Below are positions 17,848-59,547 of a stretch of DNA of 64,000 nucleotides, in pieces (the stretch's first letter is position 1; the number at the start of each line of letters is the position of its first letter). The notes under the pieces are model-generated. The model was given only the letters and a program-made list of their open reading frames with translations. It ran no database searches and was not told where the DNA came from. The stretch spans positions 9,792 to 73,791 of the forward strand of contig JBCLLY010000002.1 of NCBI GenBank assembly GCA_039738415.1, written 5' to 3'. Both the position numbers and the translations under genes were made by a program. The stretch is from Candidatus Levyibacteriota bacterium (GTDB lineage Bacteria > Patescibacteriota > Microgenomatia > Levybacterales > GWA1-39-11).

Positions 17848-17931
17848 ACGAATATTATAGCAAGAATTGAATTTATTTGTAGCTTAAGGATAAATTCTGT
17901 TAAAATAACAATACTCTCATTTGGGAGAAGG

Positions 17932-18004
17932 GCGCCTGTAGCTTAATGGATAGAGCACCTCGCTTCGGACGAGGCGGTTGGGGGTTCGACTCCCTTCAGG
18001 CGCG
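17932..18004 (+). tRNA. tRNA-Arg(UCG)
   Basis: Hand-folded cloverleaf: acceptor GCGCCTG/CAGGCGC, anticodon arm CCTCG CTTCGGA CGAGG, T loop TTCGACT. No encoded CCA. Confidence 0.85.
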
Positions 18005-18053
18005 CCTCACTTTGTTCGGCGTAAACGCCTTTAATAGTTGAACAGGTTTATAT

Positions 18054-18299
18054 ATGTGGTTCGTTTACATACTCGAGTGTTCCGACAGAACTCTCTTTAC
18101 AGGAATAATAACTAATGTTTTGCGGAGAATTAACGAGCATAATTTAAAAATTGGTGCGAAGTCTTTAAGAGGAAAGTTGCCCGTTAAACTAGTATATAAA
18201 GAATTGTATAATAGTCAAACCAAAGCCGCACAAAGAGAGCGAGAAATTAAAGGGTGGAGGCGAGAAAAGAAATTAAATTTAATTCAGGGTTTACCCTGA
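18054..18299 (+). CDS. GIY-YIG nuclease superfamily protein (UPF0213-like)
   Basis: 81 aa. WFVYILECSDRTLFTGIITNVLRRINEHN...REREIKGWRREKK. It lies between two tRNA genes. Confidence 0.8.
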   Translation: MWFVYILECSDRTLFTGIITNVLRRINEHNLKIGAKSLRGKLPVKLVYKELYNSQTKAAQREREIKGWRREKKLNLIQGLP

Positions 18300-18315
18300 A
18301 TAGCGCAGCTATGAA

Positions 18316-18388
18316 GGGCGACTAGCTCAATTGGTAGAGCAATTCCCTCTTAAGGAATCGGTTCAGGGTCCGAGTCCCTGGTCGCTCA
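18316..18388 (+). tRNA. tRNA-Lys(CUU) with atypical T loop (TCCGAGT, C at position 55)
   Basis: Acceptor GGGCGAC/GTCGCTC, anticodon arm ATTCC CTCTTAA GGAAT, T arm CAGGG TCCGAGT CCCTG. Confidence 0.8.
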
Positions 18389-18504
18389 CACTTTAACAAT
18401 CTCAGTGTTTCACACTGAGATTGTTGGAGATTGGTCGGGACGAGGAGTTTATCCCGCTGAGCAAAGCGAAGGAACTGAAAGCGGGAAGTCCCTGGTCGCT
18501 CACA
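18373..18504 (+). repeat. direct repeat of the tRNA-Lys 3' end flanking a structured 96-nt spacer
   Basis: AGTCCCTGGTCGCTCACA occurs at 18373-18390 and again at 18487-18504. The spacer holds a perfect 14-bp hairpin (18395-18425) and the motif GGGAC GAGGAGTTTAT CCCGC...GCGGG. Confidence 0.85.
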
Positions 18505-18568
18505 AAATTCCGCCGATATGCTTTAATATATTGACAGGAATGTTGAGATCAATGGTATAATATTTTAC

Positions 18569-18976
18569 ATGGTAAAAAACTCTACTTCAAACAAACCACT
18601 CTCAAAAGACGATTTGGATACAGCCCTTAAGGCATATGCAACTAAAGCAGATTTGAACAAAGCAGTTAAGGGCTCTGAAAGAATTTTAAGAGCTGAAATT
18701 CTAAAAGTTGAAGGAAAAGTAGAGAATGTTGAAGTTGTCCTGAAAAGACTTGAAGGAAAAGTAGAGAATGTTGAAGATGGTCTGAAAAGACTTGAAGGAA
18801 AAGTAGACAAAATGGATTCCACAATTGAAAAGATTTCAAATCAATTGGATGGTTTTGTTGGAAGAGTTGACGATTTAACCAACGATAACGAGATTGGCGC
18901 TGACCAAATTCATCGACTGCGTGAAGATGTTAAAGAACGCGGTAAAAGAATCGCAAAACTTGAATCCCCAAATTAA
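18569..18976 (+). CDS. coiled-coil protein with 14-aa (42-nt) tandem repeats
   Basis: Repeats read EGKVENVEVVLKRL / EGKVENVEDGLKRL / EGKVDKMD. TTGACA (18531-18536) and TGGTATAAT (18553-18561) sit 7 nt before the ATG, so the mRNA is apparently leaderless. Confidence 0.6.
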   Translation: MVKNSTSNKPLSKDDLDTALKAYATKADLNKAVKGSERILRAEILKVEGKVENVEVVLKRLEGKVENVEDGLKRLEGKVDKMDSTIEKISNQLDGFVGRVDDLTNDNEIGADQIHRLREDVKERGKRIAKLESPN

Positions 18977-19186
18977 TAAACGTTTTATAACATTTTTTAT
19001 AACTACATTAAGCTCCTGAAAAGTCTCATAAATTCTGTTGAAGATGATCTTCAAGGGTGTTCCACACTAAGAACACTCGCTCACAGATATTGACTCACAA
19101 TATTTGTATTGCAAACAGTTCTTCGATAAAAACTCCTTAGCTAAATTGCTTGACCTTTTATAGCTTTTATGGTTATTATATAAATA

Positions 19187-37158: not shown

Positions 37159-37223
37159 ATTTACTATTATTAAAGCATTATCAATATTTTGTCAACCCCC
37201 TGTTTACCCCGTATATTTGAGTG

Positions 37224-37281
37224 TGGACTCGAGGGGATTCGAACCCCTAATCTGTCCGACGTACATCGGGCCGCTCTATAC
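37224..37281 (-). pseudogene. 3' tRNA fragment (D-arm 3' strand to discriminator), degenerate anticodon arm
   Basis: The minus strand reads TATAGAGCG GCCCGATGTACGTCGGAC AGATT AGGGG TTCGAAT CCCCT CGAGTCC A. No matching 5' acceptor strand is present nearby. Confidence 0.5.
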
Positions 37282-37341
37282 TGTGGACCGGATCCCGCTT
37301 AGCGGGACAACCCCTCCATTTTCGCCCCCTAGATTTAACTG

Positions 37342-37414
37342 TGGACCTTAGGGGATTCGAACCCCTCACCTTTTCTATGCCATAGAAACGCTCTACCAAA
37401 TGAGCTAAAGGCCC
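37342..37414 (-). tRNA. tRNA-Ala(GGC)
   Basis: Acceptor GGGCCTT/AAGGTCC (with G3:U70), anticodon arm TTTCT ATGGCAT AGAAA, T arm AGGGG TTCGAAT CCCCT. TACAAT lies 12 nt upstream. Confidence 0.85.
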
Positions 37415-38945: not shown

Positions 38946-39026
38946 GCCTGGGTGGTGGAATGGTATACACGCACGCCTTAAGAGCGTGTGGGGCAACTCA
39001 TGCGGGTTCGAGTCCCGCCCCAGGCA
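38946..39026 (+). tRNA. tRNA-Leu(UAA)
   Basis: Acceptor GCCTGGG/CCCAGGC, anticodon arm CACGC CTTAAGA GCGTG, long variable arm, T arm GCGGG TTCGAGT CCCGC. Confidence 0.85.
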
Positions 39027-39112
39027 CTTGAAATTCAATTGGGACGAGAAGTTTATCCTGCTGTGCCCGCCTCTGGAGGGAACGAAGTTGAAGGAAGTCC
39101 CGCCCCAGGCAC
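39011..39112 (+). repeat. direct repeat of the tRNA-Leu(UAA) 3' end flanking a 68-nt spacer with the GAGAAGTTTAT motif
   Basis: AGTCCCGCCCCAGGCAC occurs at 39011-39027 and again at 39096-39112. The spacer contains GGGAC GAGAAGTTTAT CCTGC (39041-39061). Confidence 0.85.
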
Positions 39113-39163
39113 ATGTCTATTTACTATTACCTACTACCTAATGTCTAATACCTATTCTCTAAA

Positions 39164-49393: not shown

Positions 49394-49522
49394 CGACTGA
49401 TTTAACAAAATCTTAAATTTCTCCGCCTGCTGCTGGACATGGATCCCCTTCGATTCGCTCAGGGTAAACGAACCGAGATAAACAGCTCCAAAGGCTATCC
49501 CGCCAATTTGTCTTTACCAGAG

Positions 49523-53187: not shown

Positions 53188-53381
53188 CACTTCGCTTCGT
53201 TCAGTGTAAACTGATTGAGTGAAAGCTTTGGTTTGTAAACTAAAGAATAATGAAGCTTGCTACTTTTAAAATTGCAACGCAATTTGTCATCCCTCCTAGG
53301 CGGGATGAAATGAGGAGAAATGACGAAGCGTAAAGGTTTTAAGCTCTGCTTAAAACCGCTAAGCGGAGTCCACTAGGACAC

Positions 53382-54331: not shown

Positions 54332-54498
54332 ACTTCTCGCCCTGCGCTATGTAGGGTGCAACAGCAAACACTAAGTTTATCGAAGTGTGGGCGCTAGAGG
54401 GCTCCCCGATGTTCATCGGGATAAACTTCTCGCCCTCAACTATGTAGGTTGCAACAGCAAACACTGAGTTTATCTAAAGTGTGGGCGCTAGAGGGCTC
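54332..54498 (-). repeat. two-copy tandem repeat (period about 93-94 nt) of the tRNA-Val(UAC) 3' end plus trailer
   Basis: Units 54332-54404 and 54425-54498 differ at about 7 positions. Each ends (tRNA sense: begins) with GAGCCCTCTAGCGCCCACACTT. They are separated by the hairpin CCCGATGAACATCGGG. Confidence 0.85.
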
Positions 54499-54554
54499 GA
54501 ACCCCTGACATTTTCGGTGTAAACGAAACGCTCTACCAGCTGAGCTAAGCGCCC
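54482..54554 (-). tRNA. tRNA-Val(UAC)
   Basis: Acceptor GGGCGCT/AGCGCCC, anticodon arm TTTCG TTTACAC CGAAA, T arm AGGGG TTCGAGC CCTCT. Confidence 0.85.
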
Positions 54555-54639
54555 GACGTCAAAATTAATTTCGCACGTTCGTTTATCGCAAAGCAATAAA
54601 CTTTTCACTCAATCAGTTTACACTGAACGAAGTGAAGTG

Positions 54640-59302: not shown

Positions 59303-59483
59303 GCGCGCATAGCTCAGTGGTAGAGTACTTCATTGACACCTGCCCGCTATGTACTTGGATCTATAGCTCAGTTGGTTAGAGCGTTGCATTGACATTGCAA
59401 AGGTCAGTGGTTCGAGTCCACTTAGATCCACAAGCAAGGCAGGCGGGTCGAAGGGGTCCATGGTTCAAACCCATGTGCGCGCA
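59303..59483 (+). tRNA. tRNA-Val(GAC) interrupted after the anticodon loop by a 109-nt insert (outer gene)
   Basis: The 5' half 59303-59339 and 3' half 59449-59483 share a 7/7 acceptor stem (GCGCGCA/TGCGCGC), an anticodon loop TTGACAC and a T arm CATGG TTCAAAC CCATG. Joined, they give 72 nt. Confidence 0.65.
59357..59430 (+). tRNA. tRNA-Val(GAC) (inner gene, complete)
   Basis: Acceptor GGATCTA/TAGATCC, anticodon arm TTGCA TTGACAT TGCAA, T arm AGTGG TTCGAGT CCACT. Confidence 0.85.
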
Positions 59484-59547
59484 CTACTCCAAGGTCATCC
59501 CGCTAAGGGGGATCAGGCGAGCATTTTTAATTTTTAATTATTCTTCA

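Follow-up and report, generated by a model that had tools for sequence, protein, structure and literature searches.

Small elements with an antisense guide and a copied tRNA 3′ end: a possible family of base-pairing-guided insertion modules next to bacterial tRNA genes

Introduction

Why does a transfer RNA (tRNA) gene carry an exact second copy of its own 3′ end a short distance downstream? This question is raised by the tRNA-Lys(CUU) gene of a Candidatus Levyibacteriota bacterium, which lies in a stretch of 64,000 nucleotides (nt) of contig JBCLLY010000002.1 (called the window throughout this paper). An earlier reading of this DNA (the original prediction) had described the tRNA gene, the repeat and a structured spacer between the two copies, and had considered a miniature integrative element, an RNA processing or regulatory module and footprints of tRNA-targeted insertion as explanations. 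Here, we found that the second copy closes a small element that consists of an antisense guide, a near-constant linker and a variable hairpin, and that the same element occurs directly 3′ of tRNA genes in at least six bacterial phyla. These data tentatively suggest an insertion module that locates tRNA genes by base pairing, and the competing explanations are weighed below.

Results

Structure of the element at the tRNA-Lys locus

The host gene tRNA-Lys(CUU) occupies positions 18316-18389 of the forward strand (ARAGORN call, 63 bits with the Rfam tRNA model). Its nt 58-75 constitute the first copy of the repeat (18373-18390, forward strand) and the 18-mer AGTCCCTGGTCGCTCACA recurs exactly at 18487-18504, which corresponds to an offset of 114 nt. 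The tRNA, the exact 18-nt repeat and the perfect 14-bp hairpin of the original prediction are all present where it had placed them, and it had also read the order GGGAC, GAGGAGTTTAT, CCCGC[23 nt]GCGGG, A and repeat correctly. The spacer (18391-18436, forward strand), which holds the 14-bp hairpin (arms 18395-18408 and 18412-18425), is lineage-specific and lies outside the conserved element, and in the 97% relative L277 the hairpin is imperfect. Thus, this hairpin does not belong to the architecture to which it had been assigned.

The guide (18437-18447, forward strand) is made up of GGGAC, GA, GGA and a conserved G. GGGAC (18437-18441) is the 5′ strand of a stem that we call P1 and is complementary to tRNA nt 59-63. 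The GA forms a bubble that faces G57 and A58, and GGA is antisense to U54, C55 and C56 of the tRNA. The core GAGGAGTTTAT (18442-18452, forward strand) includes the linker UUUAU (18448-18452, forward strand), which is near-invariant across 67 aligned copies. It is followed by the hairpin P2, CCCGC[23 nt]GCGGG (18453-18485, forward strand), the pairs of which covary family-wide while its interior varies freely; in L277 this hairpin has been replaced as a whole. A junction A at 18486 leads into the second copy (18486-18504 including this A, forward strand), which comprises A58 through A73 and then C and A, and its GTCCC provides the 3′ strand of P1.

Extent of the family

An exact scan for CGAGRAGTTTATCCYG with one genome per species yielded at least 120 loci. 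About half of them were chance matches inside genes and the remaining loci had the full architecture beside a tRNA. A covariance model (R1) was built from 29 copies (27 copies of other genomes plus the Lys and Val elements of the window) and recovered at least 64 further copies in at least 52 genome loci, so that the family counts at least 67 members when the three window elements are included (E<1e-3). On the 64-kb window R1 returned exactly three strong matches of 48-56 bits (E ~1e-10), which are located at 18433-18507 (48.1 bits), 39037-39116 (48.8 bits) and 54383-54440 (56 bits), and the next match reached 13 bits. In contrast to this whole architecture, the 11-mer core alone was without significance in the window (8 matches with at most one mismatch vs. 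4.1 expected). The features that define membership, which are a P1 complementary to the adjacent tRNA, a GAGRAG-UUUAU core, P2, RA and a copy of the tRNA 3′ end, were all found in the window. The view that the locus represents a family tied to tRNA 3′ ends and not a one-off duplication is thus borne out by these matches.

The carriers include Bacteroidota (many Flavobacteriia, Chitinophagia, Saprospiria and Cytophagia), Cyanobacteria, Chlorobiota, Fimbriimonadales (Armatimonadota), Gammaproteobacteria and the Candidate Phyla Radiation (CPR; Curtiss- and Magasanikbacteria). Olleya aquimaris DSM 24464, Aquimarina megaterium and Flagellimonas crocea are examples of carriers that have been cultured. 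As host tRNAs we found Thr, Trp, Leu, Met, Arg, Lys, Gln, Asn, Ile, Asp, His, Ala, Gly and Val, and the core is the same across phyla and at least 15 tRNA species. The copies sit directly 3′ of a tRNA and are co-oriented with it; the distance from the tRNA end to the guide is 9-80 nt in almost all loci. For two exceptions no tRNA was found in the upstream sequence (L074, 7.9 kb; L077, 2.9 kb), where restriction/defence-like genes are located, and these elements may be the distal ends of larger islands. Elements are 55-110 nt long and the smallest motif consists of two helices and 35 nt (L068). Tandem arrays occur at L101, L105, L082, L063 and other loci, and the L063 array is broken by an IS3 element, which is not cargo.

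The family is apparently undescribed so far. When Rfam 15 was searched, only tRNAs reached the threshold in the window and in five related loci, and at E<=10 the region 18250-18600 gave nothing but spurious microRNA and small nucleolar RNA matches of at most 21 bits. In viral contigs 103 pattern matches were obtained, all of them within open reading frames (ORFs) and none of them real. Neither a description of the element nor its exact core sequence was found in the literature searched. Three published candidates were rejected: a single long stem makes up the MRSC-65-2 motif (PMC11109978), the introns reported for Patescibacteria tRNAs (bioRxiv 2025.07.03.662931) belong to group I and lie at 35/36, and the tRNA gene fragments of PMC9897764 are integrase and CRISPR remnants.

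Common anatomy and covariation of the stems

Read from 5′ to 3′ on the tRNA-sense strand, the elements follow the order antisense guide (tRNA nt 54-6x), G-UUUAU, variable hairpin P2, R-A (R, purine) and sense copy of nt 58 to 74/75. P1 is formed between 4-14 nt upstream of the core and the repeat, where the pairing starts from tRNA nt 59. P2 is closed by CCY/RGG (Y, pyrimidine) and its interior is free, ranging from a GAAA loop to more than 40 nt; the terminal loops, which we surveyed with regard to RNA vs. single-stranded DNA, are a mix of GNA triloops and GNRA-like tetraloops. The two helices are separated by 11 nt (GAGAAGUUUAU) in one strand and by R-A in the opposite strand, so that the motif is composed of two helices and an 11-nt/2-nt internal loop. 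The consensus of 67 aligned copies reads RC-GAGAAG-UUUAU-CCY…RGG-RA-GY.

Both stems covary. Over P1 and P2, 83.8% of the cells are paired and 121 double-change cells were counted vs. 55 in shuffled alignments, with none of 500 shuffles being as high. The junction-proximal P1 pair is A-U in 33 and G-C in 21 copies, one P2 pair is C-G in 43 and U-A in 21 copies, and in L277 the base of P2 is flipped to GGU/ACC. The GGGAC/GTCCC pairing suggested previously for the Lys element is thus real, since this stem covaries with tRNA identity. Further copies and covariation, the absence of which would have spoken against the original prediction, were both observed (covariance model search, shuffle test). 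In P1 we counted 36 G·U/U·G wobbles vs. 4 A·C/C·A mismatches, and these numbers indicate that the tRNA-sense strand, either as RNA or as single-stranded DNA, is the folding one.

The limits of the copied segment are also conserved. Identity between the two copies starts at G57 or A58, and the 3′ strand of P2 stands in place of nt 54-56. Wherever the junction lies (T-loop, T-stem, acceptor stem), the copy runs to the tRNA 3′ end, and in at least 12 independent loci the identity ends exactly after C74. The second copy stays tRNA-identical through C74 although only 4-6 nt of it are involved in P1, and among the Flavobacteriaceae genera it varies in step with the acceptor stem of their own tRNA-Thr. 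In most copies, the acceptor 3′ strand of copy 2 has no pairing partner upstream of the guide. Minimum free energy folds predicted for the tRNA-plus-element transcripts placed the tRNA 5′ acceptor strand against copy 2 in all three cases (Lys, Leu, Val). The guide was paired with copy 1 in the Lys and Val folds, and the Leu fold contained only the pairing of the acceptor 5′ strand with copy 2.

The guide is antisense to the T-loop and the target contains CGAG

All 50 host tRNAs carry C56-G57-A58-G59 in the T-loop vs. only 8 of 43 neighbouring element-free tRNAs, and CAAG T-loops, which are common among G59 tRNAs, were never used among these 50 hosts. The core C-GA-GAA is antisense to U54-U55-C56-G57-A58-G59 save for a G·A/A·G bubble at 57/58, which is the position where the repeat begins. 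The recurring core had been recognised before and is indeed shared by the elements, but its antisense relation to the T-loop and the constant CGAG target had been overlooked. Core G12-A13-A14 is antisense to C56-U55-U54 and, since bases 54-56 are missing from copy 2, this complementarity can only concern the tRNA itself.

The window tRNA-Lys(CUU) has the T-loop UCCGAGU, in which C55 replaces the near-universal U55; a 79% relative reads UUCGAGC. The Lys element is the sole one of 67 with GAGGAG, which gives a G13-C55 pair. Five more real and independent cases emerged from a metagenome scan for GAGGAG cores. L226 has its CGAG target in the tRNA-Phe acceptor stem (CCCGAGCC) and L234 in the T-stem (CCCGAG), and in both loci the C faces G13. 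Thus, G13 is opposite C in three lineages (window Lys, L226, L234) and opposite U (G·U) three times, whereas A13 of the GAGAAG cores is opposite U about 55 times. This guide/T-loop covariation rests on few independent events and has one exception, which is taken up below. Guide variants with ATGGAG-UUUAU and a copy that starts with TCCCGAG occur in L226 and L259. Since such variants with other guides exist, the near-constant part of the element, as judged from copies gathered with this core fixed, is G-UUUAU, the P2 base and R-A.

The tRNA-Phe locus of L226 (2405-5800) consists of nested layers: a CGAG-type element, a 3-kb segment, two partial tRNA-Phe 3′ halves that start from the anticodon loop and finally the ATGGAG-core variant element, with the same terminator after each copy.

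Gain and loss in close relatives

Orthologous loci were recovered via RarA and a glycosyltransferase, and strain-level variants of the window contig were not on record. The Leu element of the window is present in the 98% relative L263 and absent in five relatives at 82-89%, of which four have a CGAG T-loop. For tRNA-Lys, the comparison of orthologous loci that had been proposed earlier showed the element in L277 (97%) and its absence in L279 and L280 (79%). Being present at 97-98% and absent at 79-89%, the Leu and Lys elements are recent insertions. The Lys elements of the window and L277 share the guide; they differ throughout P2 and at one core base, and in L277 the hairpin of the spacer is only a quasi-palindrome.

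When the empty site of L268 (AAACTCAATTAT…) was aligned with the end of the window spacer and the post-copy flank of the Leu locus (AAATTCAATT|AT…), 11 of 12 bases matched across the insertion point (AAAYTCAATTAT). This alignment suggests that the DNA inserted at Leu was a 72-nt block, which would extend from the first guide base to C74 and would have entered 13 nt downstream of the intact tRNA.

Some rearrangements around the tRNA-Lys locus were observed in addition. The block of tRNA-Arg, tRNA-Lys and element (~17870-18504) is inverted in the 97% relative (L277:1026-1360) with respect to the flanking glycosyltransferase and 182-aa genes, and window positions 18505-19142, which encode a 135-aa coiled-coil ORF with LKRLEGKVENVE repeats, are absent at the L277 locus. 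An 81-aa GIY-YIG ORF (18054-18299, forward strand) is located between tRNA-Arg(UCG) and tRNA-Lys(CUU); since both tRNAs abut (0-1 nt) in L277 and L279, this gene is a recent insertion between tRNA genes. The L277 version of the 18395-18425 hairpin is shorter and imperfect, with an arm that reads ACATTGAG vs. ACACTGAG in the window, and it has 30 unrelated nt where the window has AACAAT. Judged from this comparison, the window hairpin looks like a quasi-palindrome perfected through template switching.

Search for protein partners

The ORFs next to the window copies encode a coiled-coil protein, a D-Ala-D-Ala carboxypeptidase and a DUF2268 protein, all of which are unrelated to the elements. Among the neighbouring ORFs of the window copies we found neither an integrase nor a transposase, and among 376 ORFs of 52 loci no recombinase family was enriched, save for a Xer-like gene that is syntenic with Flavobacteriaceae tRNA-Thr. 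In seven Flavobacteriaceae loci (L012, L033, L046, L047, L049, L056, L099) this tyrosine recombinase gene is located within a few kb of the tRNA-Thr/Trp elements, which is most simply explained by conserved synteny near the tuf cluster, although a role as partner is conceivable. The remaining neighbour-gene enrichment reflected housekeeping synteny only. Within the 8-kb loci no Y1 HUH transposase was found.

Discussion

A guided insertion module as tentative explanation

We consider it quite possible, though still short of probable, that the Lys locus holds one member of a new family of insertion modules, which are non-autonomous and protein-less and are guided to tRNA 3′ regions by base pairing. 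Such a module would act as a folded single strand, and we infer that its guide picks a tRNA with C-G-A-G in the 3′ region through pairing and thereby directs the insertion. Strand joining at the bubble (57/58) would then link the P2-R end of the module to the segment of the tRNA that extends from A58 to the 3′ end. As this end would be duplicated, the tRNA gene would stay intact and the insertion would be tolerated, and the direct repeats would subsequently permit tandem amplification and loss. The covariation of the stems, the tolerance of sense-strand wobbles and the complementarity that extends beyond the repeat support recognition by a nucleic acid over a duplex protein site. A selfish module would also fit the patchy, recent and decaying distribution, the tandem amplification and the intragenomic P2 diversity. 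Among the candidates originally put forward, gain and loss in close relatives speak most strongly for tRNA-targeted insertion or a miniature integrative element, but the structure is not that of a classical integrase att site.

As to the chemistry, a reaction at the DNA level, which would involve single-stranded DNA and an enzyme acting in trans by analogy to the guide-plus-hairpin ends of IS200/IS605 and to integron attC sites, appears conceivable but rather doubtful, and we regard a reaction at the RNA level as less probable still. For single-stranded DNA speak the more parsimonious heritable insertion, the IS200/IS605 and attC precedents and the terminators that often precede the guide; for RNA speak the end of the copy at the tRNA 3′ terminus, the co-orientation with the tRNA and the predicted minimum free energy folds.

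Several observations weigh against the guided insertion module. Any process in which tRNA sequence is copied would likewise produce the P1 covariation, and in the neighbourhood of the elements we found no HUH enzyme, recombinase or reverse transcriptase as catalyst. Since the core and the partner C of G59 (but neither G57 nor P1) were preset in the collection patterns, core conservation is overstated and, like the G59 requirement, partly circular. CGAG pairs with itself, so that conservation of this tetranucleotide could reflect identity (a shared crossover core) and not pairing, and in the 97% relative L277 A13 is opposite C55, which is the A·C exception mentioned above. Many Bacteroidota spacers contain an intrinsic terminator between tRNA and guide. 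The Flavobacterium tRNA-Trp loci and the arrays have paralogous spacers and post-copy flanks, and arrays usually end in a 3′-truncated unit. The alignment at Leu favours a resident tRNA plus spacer, and no single model seems to fit Leu, the Flavobacterium tRNA-Trp loci and the arrays alike. If the inserted block already contained a copy of the end of the neighbouring tRNA, simple transposition from another tRNA would be excluded as its source.

Alternative explanations

The element might instead be useful to its host, as a cis-acting RNA module in the tRNA 3′ trailer that switches between the normal tRNA fold and a swapped fold. In the modelled swapped fold the guide would sequester the T-loop and the T-stem 3′ strand, and the tRNA 5′ half would pair with copy 2; such a module could control maturation, supply a spare 3′ end or, in the manner of the tRNA-like t-elements of plant mitochondria, serve as a signal for processing. 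Minimum free energy prediction yields this swapped fold for the Lys and Val transcripts, whereas for Leu only the acceptor 5′ strand is paired with copy 2. The invariable position and orientation directly 3′ of the tRNA and the sense-strand wobbles agree with this proposal, but its strongest argument is that copy 2 strictly matches the tRNA of its own locus through C74, a match that is genus-specific in Flavobacteriaceae tRNA-Thr and is retained at Val (0 changes in 22 nt) next to a spacer that has diverged by ~15%. Nevertheless, we consider a host function unlikely. The element is patchy (absent from orthologous tRNAs at 79-89% and found on 3 of 16 tRNAs here), decayed copies and truncated units occur, P2 has been exchanged wholesale between 97% relatives, strong terminators are often located between tRNA and guide, and tandem arrays fit tuned regulation poorly. 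Another proposal, which we regard as improbable, takes guide-GUUUAU-P2 as a very small catalytic or catalysis-directing RNA and thus as a candidate new ribozyme or mobile-RNA class that targets the T-loop. Pairing on either side of G57-A58 would allow the tRNA 3′ segment to be exchanged or captured; the unit would then be a programmable strand-transfer element made of RNA without any protein, and the genomic copies would be retro-fixed products. An RNA-level mobile element of this kind, in which a guide-UUUAU-P2 RNA would pair with the (pre-)tRNA, undergo ribozyme-like transesterification at G57/A58 and be joined to a tRNA 3′ fragment ending at the processed terminus, with the chimera occasionally being copied into DNA beside the gene, has a similarly small chance of being correct. 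It would account for the fact that the copy always ends at the tRNA 3′ end whatever the junction, which is a landmark of the RNA molecule and not of DNA, and for the inferred Leu insert running from the first guide base to C74. Pairing that flanks a 2-nt bubble at the junction resembles the way in which small ribozymes hold their substrates, and sense-strand G·U pairs are tolerated. However, this scheme requires reverse transcription and targeted integration, and evidence was found for neither. The copy ends N73-C(-A) as in the gene and not CCA, known ribozyme cores show no likeness and Rfam no matches, the two-helix 35-nt minimal motif (L068) would be unusually small, and many loci have terminators upstream of the guide.

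Neither classical integrase scars nor pure slippage fit the data well. Scars of tyrosine-integrase elements of the T-loop sublocation class, in which the repeats would be attL and attR and the core a leftover integrase arm or core site after cargo loss, could explain the direct repeat from T-loop to tRNA 3′ end, each copy often with its own terminator, and the displaced 3′ ends that litter the tRNA 3′ regions of this genome (tRNA-Ala, Val-GAC). L074 and L077, with no tRNA in 7.9 kb and 2.9 kb of upstream sequence, respectively, and with restriction/defence-like genes, may be distal ends of islands, and L226 has a 3-kb segment between repeated tRNA-Phe ends. Yet more than 50 loci have a 9-80 nt spacer without cargo or integrase, and the repeat starts at 57/58 without the expected 7-nt T-loop overlap. 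Moreover, the guide shows covariation with each tRNA and accepts G·U pairs, neither of which double-stranded protein sites need, and the core is identical across phyla and at least 15 tRNA species; taken together, this makes integrase scars very unlikely. We would give even less credit to an origin as by-product of replication template switching or slippage at the T-arm, spread by homologous recombination and devoid of activity of its own. The window has a perfect 14-bp hairpin where the 97% relative has a shorter and imperfect palindrome, a difference typical of quasi-palindrome correction, and arrays can form by unequal exchange between repeats. Slippage does not explain why at least six phyla share an identical G-UUUAU-P2 core, why the target is strictly CGAG, why a non-complementary GA bubble is conserved and how the compensatory changes came about.

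Comparison with known systems

The T-loop sublocation class of tRNA-gene integrative elements, which use tyrosine integrases, was reportedly described by K. Williams in 2002. The present elements resemble this class in their insertion at a tRNA gene that stays functional, the direct repeat from T-loop to 3′ end, the tandem arrays and the displaced 3′ fragments. They differ in having neither integrase nor cargo between the repeats (55-110 nt), in a repeat that starts at 57/58 and does not cover the T-loop overlap, in their covarying antisense guide and in one core that serves many tRNAs. With IS200/IS605-type ends, PATEs and REP/RAYT they share strand-specific single strands, a short guide 5′ of a hairpin that pairs with the cleavage or target site, reprogrammable targets and non-autonomous copies served in trans. 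Here, however, the guide has 10-20 nt and not 4 nt, one hairpin is present instead of two, the element is flanked by a 17-22-nt tRNA-end repeat where insertion without target duplication would be expected, and only P2 is conserved, with lineage-specific spacer hairpins, where subterminal hairpins at both ends would be expected. In addition, there is no TnpA/RAYT gene within the 8-kb loci and the elements are exclusive to tRNA 3′ regions. Integron attC sites are similar as folded single-strand sites with a conserved unpaired part, a variable terminal hairpin, covarying stems and tandem units beside a fixed site, but R/L boxes (GTTRRRY) and IntI are lacking here, the units have no ORFs and the stem is made of the target gene's own sequence. 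The bridge/seek RNA of IS110 (150-250 nt, two guide loops, DEDD recombinase) differs from these elements of ~35 nt plus flanks, which have no adjacent recombinase gene.

Ribozymes in tRNA trailers (phage 'theta' ribozymes, which are hepatitis delta virus (HDV)-like, and hammerheads near tRNAs) are likewise small structured RNAs directly 3′ of a tRNA and co-oriented with it. In contrast, the present elements have no double-pseudoknot or hammerhead core, no Rfam match, no members in viral contigs, and a duplicated tRNA end plus guide. Group I intron internal guides and the exon-binding/intron-binding sequences (EBS-IBS) of group II introns also provide an antisense segment across both sides of a junction; here, the element measures tens and not hundreds of nt, there is no intron core and the tRNA is uninterrupted. 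A cmscan search for small self-cleaving ribozymes (hammerhead, hairpin, HDV-like/theta, twister, twister-sister, pistol, hatchet) gave no matches, and neither a CUGANGA/GAAA core nor a nested pseudoknot partner was found by inspection. Inspection also led us to drop a k-turn (bulge on the wrong strand) and an 11-nt tetraloop receptor. Loop A of the hairpin ribozyme was dismissed as position 60 is Watson-Crick paired and covarying, an HDV-like fold for want of a P2 partner downstream and a hammerhead for its wrong arm order.

If the guided insertion module is real, bacteria from CPR to Bacteroidota and Cyanobacteria would carry a tiny element that locates tRNA genes by pairing and not with a protein of its own, and that protects the host gene through 3′ end duplication. 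Guided insertion (or RNA strand exchange), of which few kinds are known, would then gain a new one, and it might be reprogrammable, as both guide and target vary from one tRNA to another and even with the position in a single tRNA. The elements would explain many of the 'partial tRNA' fragments and tandem repeats near tRNA genes that confuse annotation and island-finding tools, and would mark tRNA trailers as fast-evolving sites even in very small genomes. R1 offers a compact motif that can be searched genome-wide.

Other elements and displaced tRNA ends in the window

When all 16 tRNAs of the window were screened for a repeat of their own 3′ end downstream, three of them (Lys, Leu(UAA), Val(UAC)) had an intact element and tRNA-Gln a decayed one, and other tRNA-end debris was located downstream of tRNA-Ala(GGC) and Val(GAC). 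The original prediction had named tRNA-Leu(UAA) and tRNA-Val(UAC) as sites of the same architecture, and R1 matched both. tRNA-Leu(UAA) (38946-39027, forward strand; T-loop UUCGAGU) is followed on the same strand by its element at 39041-39112, with the guide GGGAC, the core GAGAAGTTTAT, P2 at 39057-39094, an A and the copy AGTCCCGCCCCAGGCAC at 39096-39112. tRNA-Val(UAC) is encoded on the reverse strand (54481-54554; T-loop UUCGAGC) and so is its element (54383-54437), which has the guide GAGGGC at 54437-54432, the core at 54431-54421, P2 CCCGATGAACATCGGG at 54420-54405 and the copy GAGCCCTCTAGCGCCCACACTT at 54404-54383. It is followed by an older partial Val unit (54332-54382, reverse strand), in which the spacer is repeated at ~85% identity and then the guide, and in which the core stops after GAGAAGT. 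Copy 2 of the Val locus has 0 changes in 22 nt vs. ~15% divergence in this neighbouring repeated spacer. The decayed element 3′ of tRNA-Gln(UUG) (~49429-49491, reverse strand) reads TTGGA-GCTGTTTAT…CCCTGAGCGAATCGAAGGG-GA-TCCATGTCCAGCAGC.

A looser case had been suspected at tRNA-Ala, and a degenerate relative is indeed present there, but it represents a different element type accompanied by displaced ends of other tRNA-Ala alleles. The region 3′ of tRNA-Ala(GGC) (37341-37414) forms a graveyard of displaced tRNA-Ala ends (37215-37340, reverse strand). It contains a second-type element, GGAGGGG-TTGT-CCCGCTAAGCGGG-A-TCCGGTCCAC, the copy of which fits the tRNA-Ala allele of the relative L263, as well as a full T-arm plus CGAGTCCAC, which fits the allele of L264. 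Four different alleles of the tRNA-Ala(GGC) locus exist among close relatives. Downstream of tRNA-Val(GAC) (59432-59530, forward strand) we found a T-arm plus acceptor fragment of another tRNA (CCATGGTTCAAACCCATGTGCGCGCAC) and then a hairpin TCCCGCTAAGGGGGA, which resembles one in the tRNA-Ala debris.

Most tRNA genes of the window end with N73-C-A and not with CCA, as can be seen from the 3′ flanks at 18389-18395, 54475-54481, 54633-54639 and 53188-53195. The trailers of Phe and Leu(GAG) have ~40 nt in common. Several trailers (Lys, Val-UAC, Phe, Leu-GAG) share CACTT…CAGTGT, which is able to pair with the discriminator region and may be a lineage-specific 3′-processing signal.

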